The notes: a model not told the origin generated them from the letters alone. Positions 1 to 19,485 are shown, counted from the stretch's first letter. The stretch: 64,000 nt of DNA from an uncultured Gammaproteobacteria bacterium (GCA_942491995.1 CALOCX010000017.1:309919-373918); one strand, 5' to 3'. Program-made: numbers and translations.

Positions 1-4
1 TCAA

Positions 5-859
5 TCAGCTTGACCGGGGCCTTTCTTTTTCAGCCACTATCTGCTGGACCAGGTGCCAGTCATTCTCGCTGTCGACATCCACGGCAGCCTCGGCAAACGG
101 CAGGATGGCCACACCAATCTTCATCTCGAACCTCCCGGACAGGCGTGCAAGCGCTTCCTGCAACGAGAGACGTCCAAGCAGGTACTTGAACACCGGCCAC
201 CACCCCAGGATACCGACCACCCGCCAGGGTTGCTTGCGCTGGCGCTCCACCTTGCGCCAGAAGCCGGTAATTGCACGTGAGCGGGGTGTCATGAAGGCAA
301 ACAGGTTGCAGCTGCAATAGTCAGCGTCGCTGAAACGCAGCCGCGTCCTTTGCATGGTGGGATAGGCGGTTGCGACCAGCTCATGGGGGGCGAGTGCAAC
401 CATCAGGTCAACCCCGGCGGTGCGTGCCTGCCCGCAAAAATGATCGATAATCTGGCTGCTCAACAAGGCGTGATCGGCGGTTGTCAGCAATACCGGTTGT
501 GATTCCGGGATCTGCTCCATGGCGGCGGCGGCGCTGGCGCTCGGGCTCTCCCGACTGGCCATCCAGCCGTAGTCACCTGCGTCGACCCCGGACTTGAGCG
601 CTCCGGCCTGTTCGAGCAGCGGCCTGGGCGGGCCGCACAAAAACCGTGTTCCAACCTGCTGGCTCTGTTCCAGTGCAGTCAGTACCCGCAGCACCATGGG
701 CGTGCCGGCAACCGGGGCCAGTGCCTTGCAGGCAACACCGGCGGCCCTGCTGACAGGATCATCCGGGTTGCGGTCGGCCGCCATGACGATGGCGCTGAAG
801 GGCGTGACGGTCTCTGTGCTATGCATGCTTGCTGATTGTCGCCGCTGGCTACTGTTCAT
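5..859 (-). CDS. Nucleotidyltransferase (MobA/NTP_transf-like), resembling Caulobacter CpgD phosphoglycerate cytidylyltransferase
   Basis: N-terminal AIVMAADR...KALAPVAGTPMVLRV nucleotide-binding signature, LLTTADHALL, C-terminal VDVDSEND; co-oriented with and 25 bp downstream of bCerS. Start may be a few codons further in. Confidence 0.75.
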   Translation of the reverse strand: MNSSQRRQSASMHSTETVTPFSAIVMAADRNPDDPVSRAAGVACKALAPVAGTPMVLRVLTALEQSQQVGTRFLCGPPRPLLEQAGALKSGVDAGDYGWMASRESPSASAAAAMEQIPESQPVLLTTADHALLSSQIIDHFCGQARTAGVDLMVALAPHELVATAYPTMQRTRLRFSDADYCSCNLFAFMTPRSRAITGFWRKVERQRKQPWRVVGILGWWPVFKYLLGRLSLQEALARLSGRFEMKIGVAILPFAEAAVDVDSENDWHLVQQIVAEKERPRSS

Positions 860-884
860 GATTCAGGCCAACGCGGCTGGATGA

Positions 885-2039
885 TCAGAGTTCTTTTTGA
901 TAGATCCGGTAGCGCTTGTAGGGATCAGCGCCAAGTGATTCCAGAATATGCCGCATGTTGCGGTTGTTCTCAAGGATCCATGACATCTCCACTTCGCGAA
1001 TGCCCTGCGATGTGACCGGTAAGCGTATAGCCTCTATCAATGTATAGGCCAGCGCCATGCCGAGCGTGCTGTTGTGGTATTCCTGACGCACGCCCATCAG
1101 GGTGACGCGGGCTGTTTTAAGCTTGTGTCGCTTCAGGCGCCACAACAGCTTAATCCATCCCAGCGGCAGCAAGCGCCCGTCGAGGTCCCGGGCAGCCTCA
1201 TTCAGGTTGGGCAGTGCCACAATCATGGCTGCGGGTTTACCATCGACCGAGGCGATCTGGATGAAATCCTCATCCACCAGACGGGCCAGGTTACGCCCCA
1301 GCTCATCGAACTCTTCATGGGTAAAGGGTACGAATCCCCAGTTGTTTGCCCAGGCGTCATTGAACAGCTCACGTAAAACAGCCAGTTCCTCATGCAGGTG
1401 CTTGCGCCTCAAGGGCGAGACGGTTATCCGTGTGGAACTTTTTGAAATCAGTTTCCGCATCGCCCCGGGTACAACGAAATCGACAGACAGATGATAGGCC
1501 AGCAGATCCATGGCCTTGTGGTATCCAAGAGCCTCCAGGCTGCCGGCATAGTAAGTTCGGGCATGTCCCATCATGAAACAGGGCGGTGTATCAAAACCCT
1601 CCACCAGCAAGCCGCATTCATCATTAATCGAGAGATTGAAGGGGCCCTGCACCCGTTTCATCCCCTGTTCCCTGAGCCAGTTGCAGGCCGTATCAAGCAA
1701 CAACCGAAAGGTGGCGGGGTCATCATCCGCCTCGATAAAACCGAACAAGCCGGTTGCATCCTGATACCTTTCCAGGCGCAACCCGTCGACCTGGGCGCTG
1801 ATGCGACCGACCGGTTTGCCCTCTCGAAAGGCGACCCAGGCCTGCCAGCTGGCGTGCCTGAAATAGGGGTTTTTAGCGGACAGGTGTTGTTTACGCTCCA
1901 TCAACAGCGGCGGAATCCAGCAGGGATCGTCGTCATAGATGGACCATGGCACTCGAATGAAGCGTTGCAGGTCCTGCCGATTACTGACCGGAAGAATACT
2001 CAGATCACCGGGACGATCATGCTTTGCTGGGGAGGTCAT
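885..2039 (-). CDS. bcerS: Bacterial ceramide synthase (GNAT-fold N-acyltransferase)
   Basis: Motifs KPVGRISAQVD, GPFNLSINDECGLLVEGFDTPP, EMSWILENN; next to spt/acp/cerR. Start moved from the ORF-track 2276 to in-frame ATG 2039 (MTSPAKHD) to avoid overlap with the HIT gene. Confidence 0.8.
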   Translation of the reverse strand: MTSPAKHDRPGDLSILPVSNRQDLQRFIRVPWSIYDDDPCWIPPLLMERKQHLSAKNPYFRHASWQAWVAFREGKPVGRISAQVDGLRLERYQDATGLFGFIEADDDPATFRLLLDTACNWLREQGMKRVQGPFNLSINDECGLLVEGFDTPPCFMMGHARTYYAGSLEALGYHKAMDLLAYHLSVDFVVPGAMRKLISKSSTRITVSPLRRKHLHEELAVLRELFNDAWANNWGFVPFTHEEFDELGRNLARLVDEDFIQIASVDGKPAAMIVALPNLNEAARDLDGRLLPLGWIKLLWRLKRHKLKTARVTLMGVRQEYHNSTLGMALAYTLIEAIRLPVTSQGIREVEMSWILENNRNMRHILESLGADPYKRYRIYQKEL

Positions 2040-2216
2040 TCTCTGGGGCTCCGTGTCTGGCCTTACAGCGCCTGCCTGGCGGGGTCTGTTGCTGTGTTGT
2101 GCATGATACAAAATTTGTCTGCAATAAACAGACGCACGGATAATGCTGATTGCCGCGATGCCCGTGGCATGATTGAATAGCGCAAACCGGTGTTGATGAA
2201 ACAGGGAGCAATCGGC

Positions 2217-2645
2217 ATGAACGCAACCATGCAAAAATTCGGCGCGCCGGATACGCTCGTCAGTGATTATAATCACTGGGTGGTCTTGCTGCGCCCCGGG
2301 CAGGTAACGCTTGGATCCCTGGTATTGATATGTAAAGAACCCGCCACCGCGTTCTCCATGATCAGTGGCGCTGCCTTTGCCGAATTACAGTCGGTCACGC
2401 ATCACATTGAAGGCGTGCTTGGCCGGATGTTCAATTATGACAGGATCAACTACCTGATGCTGATGATGGTCGACCCGGATGTGCATTTTCACGTCATTCC
2501 GCGTTATGAAACCCGGCGAAACTTCTCCGCGCAGGTATTCACGGACCCTGGCTGGCCCGGCCCTCCCGACCTGACCAAACTCAACGCCACCAATACAGAA
2601 CAGAACCACAGGATCCTCGCTGCACTGAAGGCGGACTGGCCCTGA
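2217..2645 (+). CDS. HIT-family nucleotide hydrolase
   Basis: DPDVHFHVIPRY (HIT-like motif, first His replaced by Asp); AGGGAG RBS upstream of ATG 2217. Confidence 0.8.
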   Translation: MNATMQKFGAPDTLVSDYNHWVVLLRPGQVTLGSLVLICKEPATAFSMISGAAFAELQSVTHHIEGVLGRMFNYDRINYLMLMMVDPDVHFHVIPRYETRRNFSAQVFTDPGWPGPPDLTKLNATNTEQNHRILAALKADWP

Positions 2646-3234
2646 TAGCCGTCCGGCAAACCACTGCAAGCCCTGTGCTGATCGCCACGGATAAAAACTG
2701 GTGATGCGGGTATCAGACAGGCAGTAAAAATCAGCTGATAATGATGAAACTGACCAAATCTGAATGGCATACGATGACCAGTTAATGGCGCGAAATGGCG
2801 CGAAAGCTCTATCCCTCTAGCATAAGATGTAAGCGTGACCTGATTAGATGTTCGAGTTCGATAGCTGCTCGGAGGTGAACAGATTCAACGTTTCTCAGAT
2901 AGCTGAAGTTCGGTAGTCATCAGGAAATTTGCAGTATAACCGAAACCACCTGTTGGAAACCGGACATGCCATCATGGTTACCAGGTATAACTGTCGCTAG
3001 CAGGTTGCGATTTGAACGAAAATCTTGGAGAATGCATAAGTATTTGCCTATGTTGTGATTTTGAGATTGATTTCTTTTCGGGTCATAGACTTGTGATGGA
3101 TACCTTTACAGGGAGATGAATCTCATGTCTTCAAGATTATGGATTTCCGGGCCGGGTGCATTGTAGCGATGTTCACTACTGCCCTGCAGATGATTGAGGC
3201 TGTAATCATCTGCTAATTTAACAGGAGATTACTC

Positions 3235-5016
3235 TTGCGTTTGGAAGCAACAAAAACTGGTAACAACCTGCCGTTGAGGGCTGCGGATTTTCCGAATCTT
3301 GCAGCGGCCCTTGATTATGCAGCGTTGGGACGAACCGGTAGTAATTTCTACACCAGTCGCGGCGAACTTTACGCGGTACTGACCTATGCGGAACTGCGGG
3401 ATCAGGCACAGGCTCTGGCACGGCGTCTGCGTGGTCTGGGAACCGAACGCGGTGCACGCATGGTGATTATTGCGGACACCCATCCCGATTTTCTGCGCTT
3501 TTTCTTTGCCTGTCAGTACGCCGGCCTGGTTCCGGTACCGCTACCGATTCCCCACAACCCGGGCAGTCACAAGGCGTATGTCGCGCAGATACGGGCGATG
3601 ACGCAAGGCTGCCAGGCATCGCTGGCAATGGCGCCGGCAGATTATTCAGATCTGCTTGTGGATGCGAGCGCCGGGCTGGGGCTAATGCTGGTCGGCACAC
3701 CGCAAGACTATGACGCACTGCCTGAGCAGGCCGGCGAATTGCAGCCAATGCAGGCTGATGAACTGGCTTACCTGCAGTACACCTCGGGCAGCACCCGTTT
3801 TCCACGCGGTGTAATGATTACCCAGCGTGCAGTACTGAACAACCTGGCGGGGATCATAACCGAGGGAATGGACATGAGGACGACGGACCGTTGTGTCTCC
3901 TGGCTGCCCTTTTATCACGATATGGGTCTGGTGGGCCTGGTGCTTGCACCGGTGGCCTCGCAATTGTCGGTGGACTATCTTGGCACGCGTGAGTTTGCAA
4001 TGCGCCCCCGCCAGTGGCTGTCACTGATGTCACGCCACAAGGCGACCATATCGTTCAGCCCGCCTTTTGGTTATGAACTGTGTAACCGGCGACTGCGTGA
4101 AGGCGAGGCTGAAAAATTTGACCTGAGTGCCTGGCGTGTAGCAGGTGTGGGTGCGGAGACGATCCGGCCACAGGTTCTGTATGACTTTGCCGAGGCACTG
4201 GCTCCGAGTGGATTCAACCGCAACGCATTTCTTGCCTGTTACGGGATGGCGGAATGTTCACTGGCGGTGAGTTTTGCGCCGCTGGGTCGCGGACTGTCGG
4301 TAGACCGGGTGGATGCGGATCACCTGGCACTGCTCGATCATGCGCGCCCCGCAGAGAACGCTGTCGAGGAGCGTCTGAGTGAGTTCGTGAACTGTGGTGT
4401 GCCGCTGTCGTCGTTTCAAGTAGAGGTAAGGAGCGACACCGGCAAGGTCCTCCCGGAACGCCATATCGGAGTCATTCACGTGCGCGCACCGAGTGTCATG
4501 TCCGGTTACTTTAACGAGCCGGGAATCACTGCCAGAGTCCTCTCGCCGGATGGCTGGCTGGACACAGGCGACATTGGTTACCGGGTGGGCGACAGCATCA
4601 TGATCACGGGTCGCAGCAAGGATCTCATCATCATCAATGGCCGTAACATATGGCCGCAGGATCTGGAGCAGCTTGCGGAACAACAGCCGGATGTGCGTCC
4701 GGGAGACGCCCTGGCATTTGCGGTACCGGGTCCGGATGGCGCTGACGTCGCGGTGATGGTGGTGCAGTACCGCGACCGTGACAGTAACAAGCGAGCGGAG
4801 CTGATCAGGCAGCTGCAGGGACTGATCCATGCAGCGGTGGGTGTCGACTGCCATATTGAACTGGCGCCGCTGCACACACTGCCGCGCACATCGTCGGGCA
4901 AGCTGTCCCGCTCCAAGGCGCGGCAGAACTACATCGATGCGCACCCGCTGAACAAGATTGCTGTTCATGATGCGAGGGAAGCGACAGCCGTCCTGTCACA
5001 GAAACAGGCCGGCTGA
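3235..5016 (+). CDS. Fatty acyl-AMP ligase / acyl-ACP synthetase of the ceramide pathway
   Basis: YLQYTSGSTRFPRG AMP-binding loop, SWLPFYHDMGL, CYGMAEC, TGDIG, LPRTSSGK; TTG start with AGGAG RBS. Confidence 0.9.
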   Translation: MRLEATKTGNNLPLRAADFPNLAAALDYAALGRTGSNFYTSRGELYAVLTYAELRDQAQALARRLRGLGTERGARMVIIADTHPDFLRFFFACQYAGLVPVPLPIPHNPGSHKAYVAQIRAMTQGCQASLAMAPADYSDLLVDASAGLGLMLVGTPQDYDALPEQAGELQPMQADELAYLQYTSGSTRFPRGVMITQRAVLNNLAGIITEGMDMRTTDRCVSWLPFYHDMGLVGLVLAPVASQLSVDYLGTREFAMRPRQWLSLMSRHKATISFSPPFGYELCNRRLREGEAEKFDLSAWRVAGVGAETIRPQVLYDFAEALAPSGFNRNAFLACYGMAECSLAVSFAPLGRGLSVDRVDADHLALLDHARPAENAVEERLSEFVNCGVPLSSFQVEVRSDTGKVLPERHIGVIHVRAPSVMSGYFNEPGITARVLSPDGWLDTGDIGYRVGDSIMITGRSKDLIIINGRNIWPQDLEQLAEQQPDVRPGDALAFAVPGPDGADVAVMVVQYRDRDSNKRAELIRQLQGLIHAAVGVDCHIELAPLHTLPRTSSGKLSRSKARQNYIDAHPLNKIAVHDAREATAVLSQKQAG

Positions 5017-5042
5017 CAACCCGCAGACGCTGCAGGTTCTCC

Positions 5043-5972
5043 ATGTCACGAACCATTGCCGTAACCGGCGGCACCGGCTTCATCGGTGGTATGCTGATCC
5101 ATCACCTGGTGAACGCCGGGTACCATGTAAGAGCACTGACTCGTGACCGTTCCGCGCATAAACTCCCGAAGTTAGCTGGACTGGAAGCCGTTAGCGGTTC
5201 GCTCCAGGATAGTGAATCCCTGCGTCATCTGCTGCAGGATGCCAGCGCGGTAGTGCACTGTGCAGGCGCCGTTCGTGGCGTGACTGCCGCCGATTTCAAT
5301 GCCGTCAATGTCGATGGCCTGATGCAGCTGGTACGTGCGGCGCTCTCGCTCTCATCCAGACCCAGATTCCTGTCGCTCTCGTCGCTGGCGGCGCGTGCAC
5401 CACAACTCTCCCATTACGCCTCCAGCAAGCTCCGGGGGGAGCAGGCACTCGCCAGTATGGCAGCAGACATGGAATGGGTGGCGTTACGCCCTCCCGCCGT
5501 TTACGGACCCGGCGACAAGGAAATGCTGCCGCTCTTTCAGTGGATGGGACGTGGCATTGCACCGGTACTGGGCGCAGCGCATGCACGGGTATCATTACTG
5601 TATGTCGAAGACCTGTGTGCAGCAGTGCTCAGGTGGCTGGATGCAGGACAGTGCGAGAGCGGAATTTACGAACTCAATGATACCCAGTCCGGTGGTTATA
5701 GCTGGGATGAAATCATCGCGAATGTCTCGGCGCTGCGTGCCAGGCGCATCTTCAGACTGACCCTGCCGGCAACGCTGCTGCGCTCGCTTGCAGGCGTGAA
5801 TGTGACCGCTGCACGGCTGATCGGTTATGCTCCCATGCTGACACCGGGGAAGGTGCGTGAGCTGCGGCATCCCGACTGGGTAGCGGATAATACGGCATTG
5901 ACCGCCGCCATCGGTTGGCAGCCGGAAATTTCGCTGCAAGAGGGGCTGCGGCGAACCATGGGCTGGGGGTGA
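5043..5972 (+). CDS. cerR: NAD-dependent epimerase/dehydratase-fold reductase, ceramide reductase CerR-like
   Basis: VTGGTGFIG Rossmann motif, YASSK catalytic YxxxK, RPPAVYGPGD; lies between the acyl ligase and ACP as in the Caulobacter ceramide operon. Confidence 0.75.
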   Translation: MSRTIAVTGGTGFIGGMLIHHLVNAGYHVRALTRDRSAHKLPKLAGLEAVSGSLQDSESLRHLLQDASAVVHCAGAVRGVTAADFNAVNVDGLMQLVRAALSLSSRPRFLSLSSLAARAPQLSHYASSKLRGEQALASMAADMEWVALRPPAVYGPGDKEMLPLFQWMGRGIAPVLGAAHARVSLLYVEDLCAAVLRWLDAGQCESGIYELNDTQSGGYSWDEIIANVSALRARRIFRLTLPATLLRSLAGVNVTAARLIGYAPMLTPGKVRELRHPDWVADNTALTAAIGWQPEISLQEGLRRTMGWG

Positions 5973-6092
5973 ACTCGGCGTACAGCCTGTGACCGGTCTC
6001 GTTGGCAATGTTTCATTGCGTATCAGGCTGATGCCCGATAACGTCGATACCGGGCATCGACCAGCCGAACCGAATACGAGCATGGAGACTGT

Positions 6093-6347
6093 ATGAAGAT
6101 GCAGAGCAAAGAGGATATTCTTGATCAGCTGTACGAACTGGTTCAACCGTTCACCAAGGAACCGATTGAACTCGGTGCAGAGACCAGCCTCGTCAACGAG
6201 ATCGGTCTGGATTCAGTGAAGGTCATGGAGTTGATGACGCAGATCGAGGATCATTTCGATATCTCTATACCCCTGAATATCCTTTCCAGGGTGGACACCC
6301 TTGGAGATTTTGCAGAACAATTGCAACCATTGCTGCCAGACAGATGA
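6093..6347 (+). CDS. Acyl carrier protein dedicated to sphingolipid synthesis
   Basis: 84 aa acidic protein with GLDSVKVMEL phosphopantetheine Ser motif and EDHFDISIP; 3 bp upstream of spt. Confidence 0.92.
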   Translation: MKMQSKEDILDQLYELVQPFTKEPIELGAETSLVNEIGLDSVKVMELMTQIEDHFDISIPLNILSRVDTLGDFAEQLQPLLPDR

Positions 6348-6350
6348 TTC

Positions 6351-7553
6351 ATGACAAGCCTGTTCGATAAATTTCTGCCCCTTGAGAAAACCCGTACCGA
6401 GCTGGTCGCAGGCAGTGGTGTGGATCCCTTTCATGTCGTGGTAGAACGTGTGGTGTCGGCCACTGAAGCGATGATCAATGGACGCAAGGTGATCATGGCC
6501 GGCACTAACAACTATCTTGGACTCACCTTCGATCCCGAATGCATCGCAGCCGCCTGCACGGCAATCAGTGAGGAGGGTACAGGCACCACTGGCTCGCGCA
6601 TGGCAAATGGCAGCTACGCCGCTCACGTGGCACTCGAGAATGAACTGGCGGCCTTCTTCAATTGCCCCGCTGCCATTGTCTTTTCAACCGGTTACATCGC
6701 GAATCTGGCAGTTCTTTCGACACTGGCGGGTCCCGAGGATGTGATCCTGCTGGATGCCGACTGCCATGCCAGTATCTACGACGGCACCCGCCTTGGCAGC
6801 GCCCAGGTGATCCGCTTCCAGCACAACAACCCGGCAGACCTGGAAAAGCGTCTGCAGCGACTTGGTGACCGCGCCGGGAACACCCTGGTGGTGGTGGAAG
6901 GAATCTACAGCATGCTCGGTGACCGGGCGCCGTTGCGTGAGATTGCAGACGTCAAGAACCGCTTTGGCGCCTCCCTGCTGATAGATGAGGCCCATTCGCT
7001 GGGCGTTCTGGGCGAACGTGGCAGGGGGCTGGCGGAAGCCCTCGATGTCGAGGCCGAGGTGGATTTCATCACCGGCACCTTCAGTAAAAGCCTCGGGTCT
7101 ATTGGTGGCTTCTGTGTCAGCCGCTTGCCCGAGCTGGAATATGTACGCTATGCCATGCGTCCCTATATCTTCACCGCATCCTCTTCACCGTCCCTGATCG
7201 CCTCGACCCGCAAGGCACTCGAGATCCTCTGCCGTGGCAGCGCACTGCGGAAAAAACTCTGGGACAACGCAACACAGCTGTATCGGGGTCTCGCGGCCAT
7301 GGGATTTGAACTTGGCCCTGAAGTCAGCCCGGTGATCGCGGTGCGACTGCCTGCAAGCGTGGGTGAGACGACCGCACTATGGAATGAGTTACTGTCACAG
7401 GGCATCTATGTCAATCTGGTGCTCCCGCCTGCCACCCCGGGCGGTAAACCCCTGCTACGCTGCAGTCTCAGTGCAGCCCATAGCCCGGTGCAGATAAAAG
7501 CGATTCTGGACGCCTTTGCGCTGATCAGGGAAAAGTTGCAGCCTCACACCTGA
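6351..7553 (+). CDS. spt: Serine palmitoyltransferase (alpha-oxoamine synthase family)
   Basis: GTNNYLGL, GTTGSRMANG, DADCHASIYDG, EGIYSMLGD, DEAHSLG, GTFSKS (PLP Lys), YIFTAS: closer to Sphingomonas-type SPT than to BioF/Kbl; adjacent ACP. Confidence 0.88.
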   Translation: MTSLFDKFLPLEKTRTELVAGSGVDPFHVVVERVVSATEAMINGRKVIMAGTNNYLGLTFDPECIAAACTAISEEGTGTTGSRMANGSYAAHVALENELAAFFNCPAAIVFSTGYIANLAVLSTLAGPEDVILLDADCHASIYDGTRLGSAQVIRFQHNNPADLEKRLQRLGDRAGNTLVVVEGIYSMLGDRAPLREIADVKNRFGASLLIDEAHSLGVLGERGRGLAEALDVEAEVDFITGTFSKSLGSIGGFCVSRLPELEYVRYAMRPYIFTASSSPSLIASTRKALEILCRGSALRKKLWDNATQLYRGLAAMGFELGPEVSPVIAVRLPASVGETTALWNELLSQGIYVNLVLPPATPGGKPLLRCSLSAAHSPVQIKAILDAFALIREKLQPHT

Positions 7554-7619
7554 GCGCAGCCGGATAGCCTGAATCACTGGTTAACCTGCCCGCCTCCCTG
7601 CATATACGAAAGTACTGCC

Positions 7620-9353
7620 ATGCATCTATTGAAGACCTTTGCCCGCGCCTACCCGTTGCAGAGTGCCATCATGCTGGTTGCACTGCTGGTTGCCGGCCTG
7701 ATAGAGGGAATCAGCCTGACTGCCCTGTTGCCACTGTTGAACAAGGTGCTGGCCATACCCGATTCGACCGGGGCGGATGCAACAGCGCCAGAGCCTGACT
7801 CCAGCTCCGGCGTCGGCGATGCACTGCTCAGTGGTATCGAAGCCATTGGTTTAACACCCAGTGTCGAGCTGCTGCTGGTGGTCATCGTACTGGGCTCGAT
7901 CATCAAGGGCGGCCTGGTGCTGCTGGCGAAGAAAAAGGTTGGCTACATCGTTGCACAGGTTGCCACTGACCTGCGTCTGTCGATGTTGCGTGCCATGCTG
8001 GCCTCTCGCTGGGAATACTTTCTGCATCGACAGCTTGGACAGTTAACCAACTCCATGTCGATCGAGGCGGTCAGGGCGGCCAGCGCCTATCTGCATGGCG
8101 CGACGCTTATCTCACAGCTTATCCAGGCCTTTGTATACATCATTATCGCCACCATGCTGATGTGGCAGGCCGCCCTGTTTTCCATTCTGATGGGCACGCT
8201 TATCTATGTCGCACTGAACCGCCTGGTGAAGATGTCACGCAAGGCCGGCAAGCGCCAGACGACCTTTACCAAGCAGATGATCGCGCGTCTCGCCGACACC
8301 CTGCTGTCGGTCAAGCCGCTGAAGTCGATGGGACGGGAAGGCCTGGTAGATACCGTGCTGGTATCGGAGACGAAAAATATAAACCGGGCGCTGCGCCGCG
8401 AGGTGGTGAGCACAGAGTTTCTGGCGGCCGGACAGGAGATACTGTTCGCGCTGGTGCTGGTGATCGGTATCTATGTCACGCTGGTAAAGTGGGAACTACC
8501 TGTCGCGACGGTGATGATGCTGGGTTTTCTGCTCTCCAGGATATTGAAGAGGACCGGCCAGGTGCAACGCAGTTACCAGAAGATGGCTGTCAGCGAGTCT
8601 GCCTACTGGTCGATCCAGAAGACCATCAGCAAGGCCGAACAGGCACGCGAGGACCTTGGGGGCGATCGTGCACCAACCCTCGAACAGGGTATCGAGTTGC
8701 AGGATGTCAGTTTCTCCTACAAGGATAAAAAAATTCTTAAGGGGATAAATATCAGCATCCCTGCCGGTTCGTTTACCGCCATCATTGGACCTTCAGGATC
8801 GGGCAAGACCACCACCCTCGACCTGATCATCGGATTGCTGCAACCGGACAGTGGCACGCTGCTGGTCGATGCTATTCCGCTGAGCGAGCTCGACATGCAC
8901 CGCTGGCGGCGCACCATCGGTTATGTCCCGCAGGAAACCGTCCTGCTGCACGATTCAGTACTCAACAATGTGGCGCTGGGTGACACCGAAATCAGTGAAG
9001 CCGATGTCATTTCAGCCCTCCGGGAAGCGGGTGCCTGGGACTTCGTGGAGAAACTGCCGGAGGGCATCCATGACCACGTGGGTGAACGCGGCGGCAAACT
9101 GTCCGGTGGCCAGCGGCAGCGTATCATGATTGCACGTGCCCTGGTGCACCGTCCGCAGTTACTGATTATGGATGAGGCGACCTCGGCGCTCGATCCGCAG
9201 AGTGAAAGGGCCATTTGCGAGACACTGCGGAAGTTGCAGGGTGCGCATACGATCCTGGCGATCTCGCACCAACCCGCCCTGCTGGACGCCGCCGAGCGTG
9301 CCTACCGCTTGCAGGAAGGACGAGCGCTGCTGGTAAAGGATGATGCCGGCTAG
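7620..9353 (+). CDS. Fused ABC exporter (TMD + NBD), MsbA-like lipid/glycolipid flippase candidate
   Basis: Hydrophobic N-terminal helices; Walker A GPSGSGKT, Q-loop VPQE, signature LSGGQRQR, Walker B IMDEATSALD. Confidence 0.9.
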   Translation: MHLLKTFARAYPLQSAIMLVALLVAGLIEGISLTALLPLLNKVLAIPDSTGADATAPEPDSSSGVGDALLSGIEAIGLTPSVELLLVVIVLGSIIKGGLVLLAKKKVGYIVAQVATDLRLSMLRAMLASRWEYFLHRQLGQLTNSMSIEAVRAASAYLHGATLISQLIQAFVYIIIATMLMWQAALFSILMGTLIYVALNRLVKMSRKAGKRQTTFTKQMIARLADTLLSVKPLKSMGREGLVDTVLVSETKNINRALRREVVSTEFLAAGQEILFALVLVIGIYVTLVKWELPVATVMMLGFLLSRILKRTGQVQRSYQKMAVSESAYWSIQKTISKAEQAREDLGGDRAPTLEQGIELQDVSFSYKDKKILKGINISIPAGSFTAIIGPSGSGKTTTLDLIIGLLQPDSGTLLVDAIPLSELDMHRWRRTIGYVPQETVLLHDSVLNNVALGDTEISEADVISALREAGAWDFVEKLPEGIHDHVGERGGKLSGGQRQRIMIARALVHRPQLLIMDEATSALDPQSERAICETLRKLQGAHTILAISHQPALLDAAERAYRLQEGRALLVKDDAG

Positions 9354-9488
9354 CAGGCGAGCCTCTTCCTGTTCCCGTCACGTTCGGTTTTCTGGGAGCA
9401 CACTTTTCGACACCGCCGCCACCTGCTAGACTGCCCCCTCCTTCCCATGCAGCCATTGCCAGCAACTCTCCTGGCCGGGAACACTCCA

Positions 9489-10649
9489 GTGCGAATCGGA
9501 TTTCTTTTCAATCACTTTTTCCCCCACCAGGTACCGCACGCAGCGCCCTATGCGTACGAACTTTCGCGCCGCAACCCTGACTTCGAAGTCATTATCGCGT
9601 GTTCGTCGAGAGCCGAGATGGAACTGGCGAAGCGAATTGGCGCGCTCTACCCCGGTCACCGCTGTACGTTCAGGCACATTCGTCCGTCCTGGGCCTACCG
9701 CATGATCGATCCCCTGATCTCGCCGTATACTTTCACACGCAAGAAGATGGTACTGAAGAATAACCTGGCGTTCTTCCGCAGCCTGGATGCGCTGGTGGCG
9801 CCGGAGCGCCACTGCATGAAATTGAGAACGCTGTACAAGCTCGAGGGAGTGCGGATGATACACGCGCGCCACGGTGCCGGAGACCGCCAGGGCGGCTTCG
9901 ACGAGCGCTCCGGCGCATTCGATCTCACGCTGCTACCCGGGCAGAAATACATCGACCGCCTGCAGGAGATCGACGCCCTGCGCCCGGATGCCTATGCGGC
10001 TGTCGGCTGGCCCAAGTTCGAGGTCGTTCGCGGCCTCAACCCCGAACCCGTGCGCTTCTTCGACAACGACAATCCGGTTGTCGTCTACAACCCGCATTTC
10101 GACCAGCGCGTTTCGTCCTGGGAGAAGATGGGCCTGCAGGTGCTGGACTTCTTTGTAGACAACCCGAACTACAACCTGATCTTCGCGCCGCACGTGGTGC
10201 TGTTCAAACGACATGTCCGGCACAAGGGGTATCTGCCGGACAAGTACCGCAAGATCGCCAACATTCTGATCGACACCGGCAGCGCCGCCTCGACCGACAT
10301 GAGCTACATCCTGAATTCCGATATCTACCTGGGGGACGTCAGCAGCCAGGTCTACGAATTCCTGCTCGAGCCGCGGCCGGTTATCCACCTGAACGCACAT
10401 CACGTTGACTGGCAGGGCGACCCCTACTACCTGCATTTCACCCTGGGTCAGGTGGTCGACGATGTCGAACAGCAGCTGGGCCCCGCGCTTCAGCGGGCAT
10501 TCGACACCCACGCGCAGTACCTGGATGAGCAGCGACGTGTGTTTGCCTACACCTATTACAATGAAACCGACAGCACCGCGGCCCAGCGCGGCGCCGACGC
10601 CATTGCACGGTTTCTATCCAAACCCGCAGCGACAGATACCGCGCAGTAG
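9489..10649 (+). CDS. GT-B-fold protein, CDP-glycerol glycerophosphotransferase (TagF/TagB)-like
   Basis: VVYNPHF, IFAPH and SDIYLGDVSSQVYEFLLEPRPVIHL resemble the Glyphos_transf C-terminal motifs; GTG 9489 (MRIGFLFNH) preferred over ATG 9447. Confidence 0.55.
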   Translation: MRIGFLFNHFFPHQVPHAAPYAYELSRRNPDFEVIIACSSRAEMELAKRIGALYPGHRCTFRHIRPSWAYRMIDPLISPYTFTRKKMVLKNNLAFFRSLDALVAPERHCMKLRTLYKLEGVRMIHARHGAGDRQGGFDERSGAFDLTLLPGQKYIDRLQEIDALRPDAYAAVGWPKFEVVRGLNPEPVRFFDNDNPVVVYNPHFDQRVSSWEKMGLQVLDFFVDNPNYNLIFAPHVVLFKRHVRHKGYLPDKYRKIANILIDTGSAASTDMSYILNSDIYLGDVSSQVYEFLLEPRPVIHLNAHHVDWQGDPYYLHFTLGQVVDDVEQQLGPALQRAFDTHAQYLDEQRRVFAYTYYNETDSTAAQRGADAIARFLSKPAATDTAQ

Positions 10650-10682
10650 AACGTTTGGGATAACGACAGCTCAATGAGTCCA

Positions 10683-10712
10683 GCCTTCAGGAAAGGCGGT
10701 TTTTTATTTTTC
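10683..10712 (+). terminator. Probable Rho-independent terminator between convergent genes
   Basis: GCCTT-caggA-AAGGC stem followed by GG and a T-rich run. Confidence 0.45.
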
Positions 10713-11627
10713 CTCTACTCCCCGGGCCACAACATCATCCAGCAGCCTGGTCAGAAAGTGTTGCGGTGAGAATTGGTAAAGTGTTTCAGCCGCAATCGGT
10801 TCAGGCGCTGTCTTCAAAAACTTGGCGATTTCGTCCGTAGTGGTTGCATCGGTCAGCACCAGTACGTTGTTTGCATTGTAGAGCGCGGTCTTCCTGACGG
10901 CTGCATTGGTTGTAATTATTTTTTTCCCGTAGAGGGCCGCCTCAATAGGTCTTAACGACAGTCCGTTCTGGCCGTCCTGTGTTACATCCAGCAGGCACTT
11001 CGAATTTGCAACCAGTGCCAGATACTCCTGGTATGAAATCAGCTTGATCCCGTCACTGCCGGTAATTCTCGTGTATACCCTGAAACCCGCGGCTGACAGC
11101 GAGACGCCTAGCTTGTCAACCATCGCTTTTCTGCCTTTGTTGCGCCCGACAAAAAGCAAATCGATGGCGGGGTTCGGGATAGCATTCAGGGGAAATTTTC
11201 TGACAAACTGGGAATACTGTTTTAGTGCGTAAGTCTTGCAGTCCGCTTCATCAAAAGACCAGATTGCAATACCTTTTTCTTTCAGGCCAGCGATACTGTT
11301 TCTCAGGTTTTCATTCCTGGCGACAATGTTTCTGCAAATAATGGCCGCCTGAAAATCAACCGGTATCTCATTTAATATACGCGTCAAGTTGACCTTGCCC
11401 TGAAAAAAGAAGCTGCTTCCCGGGTTCTTTTCGATCAATTTCAGGATCAACTTCTTCAGCTGGTAGTGTCTCGCCCTTTTGAACCATCTGGCCAGAATGT
11501 TGCCGTGATATCTGCTTTCTTTTAAATTTATGACGTTTATGGCTATACTGCCGAGCTGGCCGATATCAAGAAACTGTACATCGTAATCCGGCCAGAAACC
11601 GATTAAAAAAACTTTTTTCTGTGGCAT
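10704..11627 (-). CDS. Putative glycosyltransferase (GT-B, CgeB/Glyco_trans_1_2-like; LPS/polysaccharide biosynthesis)
   Basis: LLFVGRNKGR, LLDVTQDGQNGLSLRPIEAALYGKKIITTN; start moved to MPQKKVFLIG to avoid overlap with the divergent gene; low GC. Confidence 0.55.
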   Translation of the reverse strand: MPQKKVFLIGFWPDYDVQFLDIGQLGSIAINVINLKESRYHGNILARWFKRARHYQLKKLILKLIEKNPGSSFFFQGKVNLTRILNEIPVDFQAAIICRNIVARNENLRNSIAGLKEKGIAIWSFDEADCKTYALKQYSQFVRKFPLNAIPNPAIDLLFVGRNKGRKAMVDKLGVSLSAAGFRVYTRITGSDGIKLISYQEYLALVANSKCLLDVTQDGQNGLSLRPIEAALYGKKIITTNAAVRKTALYNANNVLVLTDATTTDEIAKFLKTAPEPIAAETLYQFSPQHFLTRLLDDVVARGVEEK

Positions 11628-11706
11628 CTTTGAACTGTTTAGTGTCTTCATCAATGTAGATGTCCCCTTAATCATGCATTCAGCATCCACTGTGCGAATC
11701 CAGTCT

Positions 11707-12486
11707 ATGAATACTGAAATACAAGAACCTGTCAGAATCTTTGTCGGAACATCGCCCAACGGAGAGGATGCCGAAGCGGAAATGGTACTGGAATACTCAT
11801 TACGCAAACACAGTTCCCGGCCAATCGATATTACCTGGATGAGACTCTCCAGAGACCCCCGGTCGATCTGGTATAGCGGCAAATATGGCAGGAGTGGCTG
11901 GCGCACACACAAATGGACCACACCCTTTACCGGCTTTCGCTGGGCTATTCCGGAAGCCTGCAACTTTCAGGGAAAAGCCATTTACATGGATGTTGATATG
12001 GTCAACTTACACGATATCAGCGAATTATATAGCCTCGCCTTTGCGCACGACAAAGCCATCATGGCTCGACCTGGTCTTAAATCTAATTACAGATTTTGCG
12101 TCATGCTGATGGACTGCGAGAAACTGAAAACCATTTTACCGCCGGCAAAAAAACTGCAACGACTTAAACAGGGTCATCGCGAAATCACCGATATGTTGCT
12201 CAAATCCGATTATATCCAGACACTCGATCCACGCTGGAATTGTCTTGATGGCGAAGACCTGGCGATTGATGAGATCTGGCACCTGCACTACACAAAAATG
12301 GCCTCTCAGCCGTGGAAGCCTGCATGGTATCCAGGCGTAACAGAAGAACATGCCCGGCCTGAAATTGCCGATCTCTGGTTTCAATATAAAGAGGAAGCCA
12401 TGGCCAACAGCTGGTGGCCTAAAAAACCCGACCCTCCATTCGGCGCAGTTAAAATCCATCTCCGCAAGGGCAGGAAAAAAGCCTGA
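11707..12486 (+). CDS. GT-A nucleotide-diphospho-sugar transferase (GT8-like)
   Basis: RIFVG, TPFTGFRWAIPE, AIYMDVDM (DxD), WNCLD, HLHYT; start at MNTEIQEP. Confidence 0.7.
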   Translation: MNTEIQEPVRIFVGTSPNGEDAEAEMVLEYSLRKHSSRPIDITWMRLSRDPRSIWYSGKYGRSGWRTHKWTTPFTGFRWAIPEACNFQGKAIYMDVDMVNLHDISELYSLAFAHDKAIMARPGLKSNYRFCVMLMDCEKLKTILPPAKKLQRLKQGHREITDMLLKSDYIQTLDPRWNCLDGEDLAIDEIWHLHYTKMASQPWKPAWYPGVTEEHARPEIADLWFQYKEEAMANSWWPKKPDPPFGAVKIHLRKGRKKA

Positions 12487-12514
12487 ACCCCAGGCAATTC
12501 CCCGGTCGTTATCT

Positions 12515-13759
12515 TTAGGGGCTTGATATACTCTGCAGTATGCATGACGCCAGAATATCATTGCCCCGCGGAGAATAATGGGTTGCATCAACATAGCTTC
12601 CCTGTACGCCAGCCCCGGAAATTGCACGGGAGCAATCTTGCATTATTAAAAGCCCTGCACTGATCGCTTCCCTGATTCTTGAATCAACGCCGTTGTAAAC
12701 GGCAAAATAATCCGACGTGTAAAAGTCCTCAAGTAAAAATTCCTGGTTGCTTTCCAGCAATCCTATTGGTTGGTAGATGAAGTGAACAGTAAAACCAAAG
12801 GCATCCCCCAGTTGCCGGACAAACGAAATATTTTCCTTGTAATAGTGAATAATCTCGTCGGCAAGTTTGTCGATTCTGTTCTTGTGCAGGGTTGCCCAGT
12901 TGTAATGGAAATCCATTAACTCAAGCCAGTCGTCCAGCCCATTCACATTTGCGCTCTTGCGAATAAAGACATCGTTAATGTCATTTTTCCTGTGCAGATA
13001 ACGGTAGATTAAATGTGACACGGGAAAGCTGTATGCCAGAGCGAGCAGCCTGTTCTCTTTAACAGGCACACCAAAAACGAGTGGCACCTGCCCTCTGTCA
13101 AGGATCAGGCCCTGCGCACGCGGGCTATCGTGAAGCTCGTAGGGAGACCGGGCAAATGTCGTCACTTCATTCAGGCCATCGATAAAAATAACAGATGCGG
13201 GTCGATATCCCTTGCGCAGCAGATAAACAAGCTTGTCGACCTCTCTTATGGAATCGTATGCCTGAATCCCGAAATTGATATATGTCTTCTCTTCGTCAAT
13301 GGCGTTTAAACGGGCGACTACCGTACTGTTATCAGGTACGCCATCACCGAAAGTCGTTGAACCACCAAACACAAAAGTCTGCGTGTGCTGTTGCGACAAG
13401 ATATTACGCACAAAGTTATCCGACCAGTCGGGCAAGTACCTTATCCCCTCCAATCCTACCGTGTAATGTGGTCGTGCCGCCCCTTCTGTGAAATGCAACA
13501 CCGTATGTGGCCGGATTCCAGGTGCATCGACATAAGCTTCCAGGAGACGCTCGTCATTTGTATTGAAGATCCTTTTTCTGATTGCGATTCCTTCACTGGA
13601 CTCCTCATCCAGGAAGAAACGCGTGTCTGTTAGTGATAGCGGATGACGGTCAAGGTAGAGTTGTGCGCCTGTGTTGATCGCGATAAACAACAACAGGGTA
13701 ATGGCGACTATCACGCACGTCGTCTTGAAGAAAGCCGTTATCCCTGGTGTTGTAATCAT
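12515..13759 (-). CDS. Membrane-anchored SGNH/GDSL hydrolase (esterase or O-acyltransferase)
   Basis: Blocks FGGSTTFG, INFGIQAY, FIDGLNE, DATHYSPRGN; N-terminal transmembrane helix. Confidence 0.8.
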   Translation of the reverse strand: MITTPGITAFFKTTCVIVAITLLLFIAINTGAQLYLDRHPLSLTDTRFFLDEESSEGIAIRKRIFNTNDERLLEAYVDAPGIRPHTVLHFTEGAARPHYTVGLEGIRYLPDWSDNFVRNILSQQHTQTFVFGGSTTFGDGVPDNSTVVARLNAIDEEKTYINFGIQAYDSIREVDKLVYLLRKGYRPASVIFIDGLNEVTTFARSPYELHDSPRAQGLILDRGQVPLVFGVPVKENRLLALAYSFPVSHLIYRYLHRKNDINDVFIRKSANVNGLDDWLELMDFHYNWATLHKNRIDKLADEIIHYYKENISFVRQLGDAFGFTVHFIYQPIGLLESNQEFLLEDFYTSDYFAVYNGVDSRIREAISAGLLIMQDCSRAISGAGVQGSYVDATHYSPRGNDILASCILQSISSP

Positions 13760-14979
13760 TGAATCGTTAACCCGGGACTGCAGATGCCGCCCAGCAGCAC
13801 GTCAAGATAACGCTCGACGGCATGGTCAACATCAAACTCGCGCGCCCGTGTCCGCAAGGCTTCGCGATCAATTGTCGTGTCCAGCGTCGCGACAATCGCA
13901 TCCGCCAGTGCCGCATCATCGCCCACCGGCACCAGGCGCCCGTAGCGGCCTCCGGCCAGGATCTCGTCCGGCCCGCTGGGGCAGTCGGTGCTGACCACCG
14001 GGCAGCCGCACGCCATGGCCTCGACAAGCACCCCCGGCGAGCCCTCCCAGGCGGAAGACAGCACGAACAACGACGCCCGCGACATCCATGCGAACGGGTT
14101 GTCGACGAAGCCGTGCAGCTCGACATCCGCCTCAATCCCCAACTCGCGCAGTAGCTGTTCGAGAATGCGCCGTTGTCCGCCTTCCCCGAGAATCACGAGA
14201 CGCACCGGCCGGCGCGCACGCACGCGGGCAAAGGCACGCAGCAGCGTCGCGAAATCCTTTGCGGGCGCCAGCCGGCCGGCCGCAAGAAGCAGCGGCAGTG
14301 CACCCGCTGACAGCCAGGGGTGATCGAGCGGTGCCGCGGCCGCACTGTCGATTTCGGGGGTATAGGTCGGGTTGGTGACCGCGCACACCTGCTTGCGAGA
14401 CAGCGCGGTATGCTCGACGATATCATCCGCGATACCCTGCGAGACCGCGATCGCGGCATCGGCGCGGCCGTAGACGCGGCGCGCAAACTTCAGGCGATTC
14501 GGACGCGGCCGCTTGCTGTCGCCAAGGTGGGAGCCGGTGAGATGGTTGCTGACACGCAGCACCACGCGAACCGGTGCACGTGAAAGCCGCGCTGCAATCA
14601 CAGCAGTCAAATGCACGTGGTTGGCGGCCGACAGCAACACGTCCGGACGCTCGCGCCACAAGTAGCGCGCCAGCGCAAAACTGCTGGCCTTGATGCGGCG
14701 TCTGCGCTTCCGTCCCGCCAGGCGAATCAGCGCGGAGTCCAGCACCACCAGCCGCACCCCCTCCCGTAGCCCGCCGGCGAGTGGCCCTTCGGCATCGACG
14801 ACCACGAGATCGACGCGATGACCGCGTTTTGCGAAACCACCCGCCAGGGTCAGGGTGCGGCGTGTCGCGCCACCGCCCGATGGCCCGTAGATGTAGATCG
14901 CAATGTGCCGTTGGGCATCGTTCACGCCGCTCAGGGATTCATCACTACTGGTTGCCGTATGCGGCTTCACCGGGATCAT
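13756..14979 (-). CDS. GT4-family glycosyltransferase
   Basis: GGGATRRTLTLA, AAGRLAPAKDF, FVLSSAWEGSPGVLVEAMACGCPVVSTDC; ATGA overlap with the SGNH gene. Confidence 0.9.
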   Translation of the reverse strand: MIPVKPHTATSSDESLSGVNDAQRHIAIYIYGPSGGGATRRTLTLAGGFAKRGHRVDLVVVDAEGPLAGGLREGVRLVVLDSALIRLAGRKRRRRIKASSFALARYLWRERPDVLLSAANHVHLTAVIAARLSRAPVRVVLRVSNHLTGSHLGDSKRPRPNRLKFARRVYGRADAAIAVSQGIADDIVEHTALSRKQVCAVTNPTYTPEIDSAAAAPLDHPWLSAGALPLLLAAGRLAPAKDFATLLRAFARVRARRPVRLVILGEGGQRRILEQLLRELGIEADVELHGFVDNPFAWMSRASLFVLSSAWEGSPGVLVEAMACGCPVVSTDCPSGPDEILAGGRYGRLVPVGDDAALADAIVATLDTTIDREALRTRAREFDVDHAVERYLDVLLGGICSPGLTIQ

Positions 14980-14987
14980 GAACAGCG

Positions 14988-16106
14988 CTAGCTCCTGGAA
15001 AAAAACCGACGCTTGATCCTGTGAAAATAATAACCCGGGTTAAAATTCAGCGGTGATTCCAGCAATGAACGCAGGATGCTGTTCTCGAAGCGCAAGGTCT
15101 GAAGATTCTCCGTCGTCTTCTCTCTATCCGGCTGCTGTTTGACAACCCCGTCCAGGGCCGTGAAAAAATCCTGTTGCGAAATATTTTGCTCAAGGCAGTA
15201 AGTCTGAAAATCCATGCGCGTGTCTTCTCTCGAGAGCATGGCGGCCAGCGTTGCATCCAGATTGCATAGATCCCCTACCAGCCAGCCACTCTGATAGAAA
15301 AGCGGCGAATCACGGTAGATCAAGGTCCCGACAGGTTTGTCACTGGCCATGCTCTGTAACAGTACGCTACTGGGCGTACCAATCACGCATTCGACCTGTT
15401 GCAGGACCTCCTCGAAGCTGCCCTCCAGCAGGTTTTCCTTTGGCGACAACGCCTCTTGCAAGGCGTTATCAAAGATGCGGAAAACGTAGGAGTAACCACC
15501 TTGCTCGAGTGCTGCTGTCAACTGCGTGAGCAGATGAACCAGGTTGTTTTTCTCCGTGTCATCGAAATACGGCGTCTTCGCCGTCGTAATAAGGAATTGC
15601 CAGCGACCGGCGGATGACGCTGTTGACTTGACACTCGACAAACGCTTGTTGTTGTAAGTCATGAAGGTAATGCCTCTATCAGGATTCCTGAATGCCAGAT
15701 AGCCGGCCTGTGCAGCAGAAACAGCCAGTATGGCATCATGAATCAGCGGTTCCATCATGTAACCACGAAAATAAGCATTGGTTTTTCGCAGGCTCGGATT
15801 AAGGTAACTGTTGGACCACTCCAGGGGACCATCGACCAGCAACAGGGTCGGAATGCCCCGCGTCCTGGCCTGCAGTATGAAGTAATTCGCTCGTGGACTG
15901 AGATAGGAATGGGTGATCACCAGGCTCGCCTGACTGACGAGCGCTGCTGCCTGCAGGTATTCTTTCTTGCTGACGAATTCAATGACACCTTTGAACCTTG
16001 CAGGAATTTCTCCCACAAGGCCGACGAACTTCTGCCGCGGCATCACAACCAGAATTTTGCCTTCGTACCTGTTTTTATCAGGTCGCATCATGGCATAGTC
16101 AGGCAC
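14988..16106 (-). CDS. Hypothetical protein, possible GT-B/capsule-synthesis-like fold
   Basis: 372 aa ORF coupled to both neighbours; CVIGTPSSVLLQSMASDKPVG resembles the C-terminal SS/T..E..KP motif of GT-B capsule proteins. Confidence 0.45.
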   Translation of the reverse strand: MPDYAMMRPDKNRYEGKILVVMPRQKFVGLVGEIPARFKGVIEFVSKKEYLQAAALVSQASLVITHSYLSPRANYFILQARTRGIPTLLLVDGPLEWSNSYLNPSLRKTNAYFRGYMMEPLIHDAILAVSAAQAGYLAFRNPDRGITFMTYNNKRLSSVKSTASSAGRWQFLITTAKTPYFDDTEKNNLVHLLTQLTAALEQGGYSYVFRIFDNALQEALSPKENLLEGSFEEVLQQVECVIGTPSSVLLQSMASDKPVGTLIYRDSPLFYQSGWLVGDLCNLDATLAAMLSREDTRMDFQTYCLEQNISQQDFFTALDGVVKQQPDREKTTENLQTLRFENSILRSLLESPLNFNPGYYFHRIKRRFFSRS

Positions 16107-19277: not shown

Positions 19278-19485
19278 GGCTGGTGATTCTAGCAAATCGC
19301 CCTTGTGACCGTATGCCGGTATTCTGTGGTCTGGTGTCCTACACTTGGGGTATTCCTTGCGATACAGGAATGATTCTGATACTTATTGTGCGCGTGGCCG
19401 TCGGGATTTTTCCAGTTCGATTGATTTTCTCTACAGTCCATTGCACATATTCTAATCGACAGGATGGATTGATGATGGAGCATCC

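Follow-up and report, generated by a model that had tools for sequence, protein, structure and literature searches.

The left end of the window, by which we mean the whole 64-kb stretch of DNA from an uncultured gammaproteobacterium analysed here, carries genes for bacterial sphingolipid synthesis followed by a fused ATP-binding cassette (ABC) exporter and by a protein resembling the teichoic acid enzymes TagF and TagB, hereafter the TagF-like protein. Judging from gene content and gene order, we consider it reasonably probable that positions 5–10649, extending to a GT4-family glycosyltransferase (GT4) at 14979, form the right-hand half of an anionic sphingolipid locus of the Caulobacter type, in which the TagF-like protein and the GT4 would elaborate the lipid head group and the ABC exporter would flip the product. 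The type of locus is known, and what is found here is neither a separate new pathway nor a new class of system. The preliminary description of this DNA had proposed an undescribed one; the Caulobacter cluster, however, already lists a Glyphos_transf protein, CC_1167, and a flippase, CC_1166 (PMC11324152 S1 Text), and that description is only partly supported overall.

The locus and its left flank

All five ceramide genes, coding for an acyl-ACP synthetase, an acyl carrier protein (ACP), serine palmitoyltransferase (Spt), the reductase CerR and the bacterial ceramide synthase bCerS, are present in the window, and the predicted products AasR, AcpR, Spt and bCerS, together with CerR, are expected to make ceramide. 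The Spt of this lineage finds its best NCBIfam match in the SerpalmtaseBetaP model. The ABC exporter and the TagF-like gene lie downstream of spt in the same orientation and a nucleotidyltransferase follows bcerS, exactly where they had been placed before. The arrangement is by no means a matter of chance; the order Spt, ABC exporter, TagF-like protein is seen again in Desulfobacterota, NC10 and Gammaproteobacteria.

Queries drawn from related loci for CDP-OH_P_transf, DAGK, Tam41-like and metallophosphoesterase proteins and for LptF/G paralogues gave no tblastn match in the 64-kb window. The earlier remark that neither a ceramide kinase nor a CDP-alcohol phosphotransferase is visible in the window is thus correct for the window itself, but it reflects the window's edge, most of the genes sought, a CpgA-like one included, lying just to the left. 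This could be seen in L086, a metagenome contig of 393 kb deposited in ENA (ERZ25039600 contig_5886), which encodes the exact protein of 5–859 and is 98–99% identical to window positions 1–11095. To the left of window base 1, where a look for cpgA/B/C or lptF/G paralogues had been advised, L086 carries CpgD-, CpgA- and CpgC-like genes, a metallophosphoesterase gene and two LptF/LptG paralogues (Table 1). CpgA-, CpgC- and CpgD-like genes are absent from the window because its left end cuts through the gene cluster, and the proposal that the downstream enzymes replace CpgA, CpgB and CpgC is not supported. By domain content, the left-flank genes match the published set for the synthesis and transport of ceramide phosphoglycerates.

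The reference for this comparison is the Caulobacter crescentus CPG/CPG2 cluster of 17 genes, CC_1152–CC_1168, equivalent to CCNA_01210–01226 (Olea-Ozuna et al. 2024, PMC11324152; Zik et al. 2022, PMC9393093; Dhakephalkar et al. 2025, PMC12275187). Orthology was assigned from domain identity, locus position and an intermediate from Litorimonas, and on this basis nearly every gene described for Caulobacter (PMC11324152 S1 Text) has a counterpart in the window or in L086. The two clusters differ in that Caulobacter has the Wzx-like CC_1166 (Polysacc_synt) in place of the fused ABC exporter, whereas the present locus adds a conserved GT4 accompanying the TagF-like gene; a sulfotransferase and an Asp/Arg-hydroxylase-family protein also adjoin here, and the gene order is different. 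Orthologues of CC_1166–1168 are lacking in the betaproteobacterium Nitrosomonas eutropha (PMC11324152). The window lineage combines the ABC exporter with a protein of the CC_1167 type.

The nucleotidyltransferase at 5–859 had been labelled CpgD-like, after the CTP:phosphoglycerate cytidylyltransferase CCNA_01210. Its sole Pfam match is PF12804 and its best match among PDB sequences is the uncharacterised TTHA0179 (2dpw, E 2.3e-15); neither the inositol-phosphate cytidylyltransferase (IMPCT, 4jd0) nor LicC (1jyk) was matched in the PDB. On the contrary, the NTP_transferase protein adjoining it in L086 matches LicC 1jyk (E 4.5e-14) and, over its full length, IMPCT 4jd0 (E 1.2e-10). Among the structural matches reported for CpgD, IMPCT comes first (PMC12275187), and LicC-type similarity has been noted for CC_1152 (PMC11324152). 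BLASTP similarity between the two neighbours is undetectable (E 5.2). Since a separate LicC/IMPCT-like gene adjoins 5–859 and the two share no similarity, we rejected 5–859 as CpgD: the family homologue of CpgD is its neighbour and 5–859 itself belongs to another family. It aligns along its full length, with 33% identity (E 7e-40), to the NTP_transf_3 protein whose gene comes after bcerS in Litorimonas taeanensis (Caulobacterales), and the bcerS–NTP_transf_3 gene pair is also found in Desulfococcus and Methylomirabilis. By family and position, 5–859 thus occupies the place of CC_1153, the MobA/CofC-like transferase after bcerS, whose mutants in Caulobacter lose CPG2 and accumulate ceramide (PMC11324152).

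The TagF-like protein, its partners and the exporter

The TagF-like protein probably starts at GTG 9489, according to both the family alignment and the L086 gene call, which makes it 386 aa long. Its AlphaFold2 model (pLDDT 86.9, pTM 0.87) has a GT-B fold of two Rossmann domains, and a Foldseek search of the PDB with this model returned TagF from rank 19 onwards (3l7m, E 2.4e-10, query-normalised TM 0.58), in line with the fold that had been predicted for the gene. The structural alignments show only 11–14% identity to TagF, and a remote kinship with TagF and TagB is what we regard as likely. The homologues are unusually conserved, at 60–70% identity across Desulfobacterota, NC10, Alpha- and Gammaproteobacteria, and the family alignment contains the invariant blocks IHxRHGAGDR, NPHF, FAPHVVLF and GDVSSQVYEF. 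Four colinear motifs (HG, NPHF, APH and DVSSQVYEF) resemble, by eye, the motifs of the TagF family. The member that Litorimonas (Caulobacterales) has in its sphingolipid locus shares 39% identity with the window protein (E 2e-92) and passes the Pfam threshold.

With the CDP-glycerol glycerophosphotransferases TagF, TagB and TarF (PF04464; TagF structures 3L7I–3L7M) the protein shares the two-domain GT-B fold, an exclusive though weak match to PF04464 along its nucleotide-binding half, and the presence of cytidylyltransferase genes nearby; those enzymes, however, belong to wall teichoic acid loci and the present one to a Gram-negative sphingolipid locus. Its 386 aa, which amount to the GT-B core alone, are about the size of the TagB primase, versus ~720 aa for the TagF polymerase.

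Scanning genomes that each represent one species retrieved at least 582 relatives of the TagF-like protein. Gene context was counted in 80 species-level loci, taken with at most 10 kb of flank to either side, by tblastn using a set of proteins from the locus. Spt was encoded within 10 kb of the TagF-like gene in 21 of the 80 loci, so that the co-occurrence with spt expected in the preliminary description is indeed found, across phyla; some sphingolipid-locus marker was present within the same distance in 36 loci (23 of the 44 in which the flanks are complete). A nucleotidyltransferase lay within 10 kb in 35 loci, a flippase within 3 kb in 28 and a GT4 within 300 bp also in 28/80, the GT4 being the tightest partner of all. 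The GT4 of the window is 57% identical to the one encoded directly after spt in Methylomirabilis, and a lower-G+C insertion (10704–13759) parts it from the TagF-like gene, its usual partner.

Compact operons with the TagF-like gene were seen in Desulfococcus, Methylomirabilis and Thermodesulfobacteria; in the last, Spt, GT4 and TagF-like genes are followed by a Cpg-like set and LptF2/G2 on the opposite strand. Among Desulfobacterota, NC10, Thermodesulfobacteria and Gammaproteobacteria there are loci in which a Cpg-like set stands beside the TagF-like gene. Because the Cpg genes go with it in many phyla, the predicted TagF-like enzyme appears to supplement the Cpg pathway and not to replace it. 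The gene context argues that the putative CC_1167-type enzyme, which usually has a GT4 as its partner, truly belongs to sphingolipid loci and is widely conserved in them.

Like MsbA and HepA, the exporter is a half-transporter fusing a six-helix transmembrane domain (TMD) to a nucleotide-binding domain (NBD), with a proposed role in flipping an anionic outer-membrane lipid before an LptFG-type extractor. It differs from them in forming an orthologous group of its own beside spt and in scoring far below their equivalog cut-offs: for the NCBIfam MsbA models, 244 bits versus 602 (TIGR02203) and 189 versus 867 (NF008381), and for the HepA equivalog 299 versus 725, every NCBIfam equivalog cut-off lying above its score. 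Its orthologues are 46–52% identical across phyla, and 19 of the 80 loci have one beside spt or the TagF-like gene.

Loci without the ABC exporter often carry a multi-pass membrane protein, and all four of those tested against Pfam are Polysacc_synt/MatE, that is, Wzx-like. Wzx-like genes were counted in 13/80 loci, none of which has the ABC exporter as well; of the 36 loci with sphingolipid markers, 15 have the ABC exporter, five the Wzx-like gene, none both and 16 neither. The window locus, taken as the window plus L086, has no Wzx-like gene and the ABC exporter instead. The two are mutually exclusive, as in non-orthologous displacement, and the pattern fits both proteins doing the same job as that proposed for CC_1166, the flipping of sphingolipid at the inner membrane. 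Of the earlier suggestion that the exporter is a flippase, the conserved neighbourhood and the compatibility with such a role thus stand, flipping itself being a prediction.

From the identities and linkage of these genes, both read from the DNA, we infer donor, acceptor, number of units and flipping as follows. The core enzymes would make ceramide, and the Cpg-like enzymes encoded left of the window would build a phosphoglycerate-type head group. At the cytoplasmic face, the TagF-like enzyme, probably with the GT4, would add a further unit to this sphingolipid head group from a nucleotide-activated polyol or acid phosphate of the CDP-glycerate or CDP-glycerol type, supplied by one of the two nucleotidyltransferases of the locus, the CpgD-like or the CC_1153-like one; a single TagB-like addition is likelier than polymerisation. 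The fused ABC exporter would flip the finished lipid over the inner membrane, as has been proposed for the Wzx-like CC_1166, and LptF2/G2 would extract it and pass it toward the outer membrane.

Alternative explanations

Several results weigh against this reading and are given here together with the alternatives. The match of the TagF-like protein to PF04464 (Glyphos_transf) covers residues 247–386, in the C-terminal half only, and scores 21.7 bits versus a gathering score of 22.1; NCBIfam holds no named family for the protein. Neither phmmer with the protein nor hmmsearch with a profile built from 22 relatives gave anything significant among PDB sequences, the profile finding no TagF, so that the sequence alone cannot tie the protein to TagF. 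In Foldseek, UDP-GlcNAc 2-epimerases rank first (E 1.6e-12, TM 0.5–0.6) and MshA is also ahead of TagF; because the epimerases outrank it, a phosphotransferase chemistry is something that we infer rather than observe. Together with the adjacency of a GT4, these results would suit an enzyme acting on sugar nucleotides, be it a glycosyltransferase or a 2-epimerase-like protein, which would provide or attach the sugar of a glycosphingolipid and be no phosphotransferase. We hold this to be very improbable. Indeed, PF04464 is the only Pfam family matched in 20 of the 22 relatives and many alphaproteobacterial relatives exceed its threshold in precomputed Pfam matches, whereas no Epimerase_2 or glycosyltransferase family was detected in the relatives by Pfam at E <= 1. 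The four colinear motifs presumably shared with the TagF family, and the cytidylyltransferase-like genes that are repeatedly adjacent, likewise speak for a TagF-like enzyme.

A second group of observations concerns the link to sphingolipids. About half of the loci with a TagF-like gene (44/80) are without a sphingolipid marker within 10 kb, and the published account of CC_1167 assigns it no function and calls it "probably unrelated" (PMC11324152). Both would be in keeping with the ABC exporter, the TagF-like protein and the GT4 making and exporting a separate, polyprenyl-carried surface polymer, the sphingolipid genes being merely neighbours. The right-hand neighbours in the window are polysaccharide-type glycosyltransferases, the Sphingomonas loci pair the TagF-like gene with Wzx-like, glycosyltransferase and AsnB-like genes, and a TagF-like protein with a glycosyltransferase and an ABC transporter is the general layout of ABC-dependent glycopolymer systems. 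We nevertheless find this explanation unlikely, given that in several phyla the spt operon includes these genes, spaced by 8–100 bp. Moreover, the loci without a nearby spt come largely from taxa with scattered sphingolipid genes, e.g. Sphingomonadales (PMC11324152), and Caulobacter CC_1167 mutants show a cofitness of 0.57 with spt and of 0.54 with cpgA (PMC11324152). Neither a polyprenyl-phosphate priming transferase nor a two-component transporter of the KpsM/T or TagG/H type was noted among the Pfam assignments in the gene lists that were read, in which they were not searched for systematically.

Two further points regard the Cpg part of the Caulobacter-type locus. Its left-flank genes were read from the near-identical L086 and not from the window's own record, and the search of 74 kb turned up no ceramide kinase, whereas Caulobacter has CC_1160 (CpgB): six DAGK queries from related loci, used in tblastn, retrieved no CpgB (DAGK_cat) homologue from the window, L086, L087 or L007. 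The kinase gene may sit elsewhere in the genome, and some lineages may bypass the step or have its gene at another place. In Desulfococcus multivorans (L001 11157–14606), two CDP-alcohol phosphotransferases flank a Tam41-like gene and, like in the window lineage, no DAG-kinase-like gene accompanies them.

The undetected kinase leaves room for direct transfer to the 1-OH of ceramide, and thus for a stand-alone pathway, dispensing with CpgA, CpgB and CpgC, in which the TagF-like enzyme would transfer a polyol or acid phosphate, activated with CDP, straight to ceramide and polymerise it to a ceramide-anchored, teichoic-acid-like lipid, and the ABC exporter would flip the product. The TagF-like fold and motifs and the nucleotidyltransferases of the locus would be in keeping with it, and a Zymomonas mutant accumulates ceramide phosphoglycerol in an organism that has a CC_1167 homologue and no CpgA (PMC11324152). 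Such a pathway seems to us quite improbable, as CpgA-, CpgC- and CpgD-like genes adjoin the window in L086 and Cpg genes accompany the TagF-like gene in the four groups named above. The GT4, moreover, is the tightest partner of that gene, which suggests that a sugar is involved. A teichoic-acid-like polymer is also unlikely because of the TagB-like, rather than TagF-like, size of the protein.

Gene map, neighbouring genes and significance

Table 1. Features of the sphingolipid locus in the window and, to its left, in contig L086, with Caulobacter counterparts; CC_1162-65 (Spt, ACP, CerR, AasR) correspond together to 3235-7553.
Feature	Position	Strand	Evidence or remark	Caulobacter counterpart
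Tam41/Mmp37-like protein, 320 aa (CpgC-like)	L086, left of window			CC_1161 (CpgC), Tam41-like
CDP-OH_P_transf protein, 426 aa (CpgA-like)	L086, left of window			CC_1159 (CpgA), CDP-alcohol phosphotransferase
Metallophosphoesterase (CC_1158-like)	L086, left of window			CC_1158, metallophosphoesterase
Two LptF/LptG paralogues	L086 12009-14146		PF03739 twice; beyond window	CC_1155/56, LptF2/G2
NTP_transferase, 251 aa (CpgD-like)	L086 10893-11648		PF00483; first gene left of window base 1	CC_1152 (CpgD), PF00483 NTP_transferase
MobA/CofC-like nucleotidyltransferase	5..859	-	Pfam PF12804 (NTP_transf_3), 48 bits; directly after bcerS	CC_1153, MobA/CofC-like transferase
bCerS-like GNAT acyltransferase (bacterial ceramide synthase)	885..2039	-	Acetyltransf_1, 27 bits	CC_1154, bCerS
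HIT-family protein	2190..2645	+	HxHxH motif 'HFHVIPR'; Pfam HIT, 21.3 bits vs cut-off 21.5	CC_1157, HIT protein
Fatty acyl-AMP ligase / acyl-ACP synthetase (AasR-like)	3235..5016	+	NF006624, 788 bits; AMP-binding	in CC_1162-65
SDR/epimerase-family reductase (CerR-like)	5043..5972	+	Pfam Epimerase, 94 bits; position conserved	in CC_1162-65
Acyl carrier protein, dedicated (AcpR-like)	6093..6347	+	84-aa ORF with DSV motif	in CC_1162-65
Serine palmitoyltransferase (Spt)	6351..7553	+	NCBIfam NF047599, 617 bits vs cut-off 500	in CC_1162-65
Fused TMD-NBD ABC exporter (MsbA/HepA-like half-transporter)	7620..9353	+	ABC_membrane + ABC_tran	
TagF/TagB-like GT-B protein (CC_1167-type Glyphos_transf)	9447/9489..10649	+	PF04464, 21.7 bits	CC_1167, Glyphos_transf
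Terminator-like hairpin + T-run, right after TagF-like gene	10683..10697	+	promoter/terminator scan	
WaaS/CpsH-family glycosyltransferase + 414-aa protein without family match, lower-G+C insertion	10704..13759	-	NF053598, 148 bits	
GT4 glycosyltransferase	13756..14979	-	Glycos_transf_1 / Glyco_transf_4	

Among the smaller genes of the locus, the bCerS-like one encodes 384 aa as called in L086 and has homologues of 48–58% identity in sphingolipid loci of other phyla, and genes equivalent to the AcpR-like open reading frame (ORF) carry PP-binding in the Desulfococcus and Methylomirabilis loci and in L086. Homologues of the HIT protein, at 49–59% identity, were found in 11 other loci. The HIT gene is intact in the window (2190–2690), while in L086 (8410–8670) and two more nearly identical metagenome contigs, L087 and L088, a 5' deletion of ~300 bp has reduced it to its last 44 codons, with the HxHxH motif gone; it may thus be dispensable in the window lineage.

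The segment that separates the TagF-like gene from the GT4 looks like a lineage-specific insertion. The G+C content is 0.50–0.51 over window positions 10001–14000 versus ~0.58 in the flanks, the 414-aa protein (12515–13759) has no Pfam match, and the two insertion genes have homologues only in the closest relative, L007, among the loci fetched. The hairpin following the TagF-like gene is possibly the end of the operon, on weak evidence, the promoter and terminator scan of 1–16500 having returned sites no more often than in shuffled sequence. To the right of the locus, Pfam matches identify a UvrD-type helicase (17106–19295), GlmS (20484–22319) and GlmU (22324–23694), and beyond GlmU, up to 29736, there are ORFs sized like those of an ATP synthase operon, as judged from their lengths alone. 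The sphingolipid-related region ends by ~16–17 kb, since housekeeping genes start there.

Other genes recur around the TagF-like family. In Erythrobacteraceae (L072 8349–12240 and L084 8512–12234) it forms a compact operon in the order NTP_transf_3, HAD-family hydrolase, TagF-like gene and GT4; in Kordiimonas (L071 10013–12662) the NTP_transf_3, HAD and TagF-like genes are likewise neighbours, though ordered differently, and in Litorimonas (L089 9205–11209) the HAD gene is directly upstream of the TagF-like gene. This suggests that NTP_transf_3, HAD, TagF-like protein and GT4 constitute a minimal module for donor synthesis and transfer. An asparagine-synthase-like, glutamine-dependent amidotransferase is encoded ~2 kb from the TagF-like gene in 11/80 loci, with L026–L031, L003, L006, L012 and L032 among them, mainly betaproteobacterial ones and Methylomirabilis; it may amidate a head-group carboxylate, and the window has no homologue. 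A DUF2141 protein is encoded in the sphingolipid loci of both Methylomirabilis (L003 17642–18139) and Litorimonas (L089 5223–5798).

The sulfotransferase and the Asp/Arg beta-hydroxylase-family protein of L086 are encoded at 17447–19254, beside the Cpg-like genes, and in Litorimonas an Asp_Arg_Hydrox gene (L089 11321–12136) lies downstream of the TagF-like gene. LpxO belongs to the same hydroxylase family. The two L086 proteins may modify the sphingolipid, by sulfation and acyl hydroxylation respectively.

In the full-text literature, PMC11324152 was the only paper retrieved that links spt with an ABC transporter or flippase, and searches for CCNA_01225, CC_1167 and ceramide phosphoglycerol returned nothing further. 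As far as the searchable literature goes, three things are new: how broadly and how tightly the TagF-like family is linked to sphingolipid loci, its GT4 partner, and the alternation of ABC exporter and Wzx-like protein. It is a tentative and rather doubtful further step that, in at least five phyla, the TagF-like protein and the GT4 make a sphingolipid new to bacteria, possibly a glycosyl-ceramide or a ceramide phosphoglycerate with extra glycerol- or glycerate-phosphate units, perhaps oligomeric, and that the long-sought inner-membrane flippase is the ABC exporter linked to spt or, where it takes that place, the Wzx-like protein.

The finishing and export of anionic sphingolipids in bacteria are only partly known, and CC_1167 had been set aside. 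Besides correcting the identity of the bcerS-adjacent nucleotidyltransferase, the present comparison offers testable leads to groups working on Caulobacter, and the interchange of ABC exporter and Wzx-like protein at sphingolipid loci provides two concrete flippase candidates.

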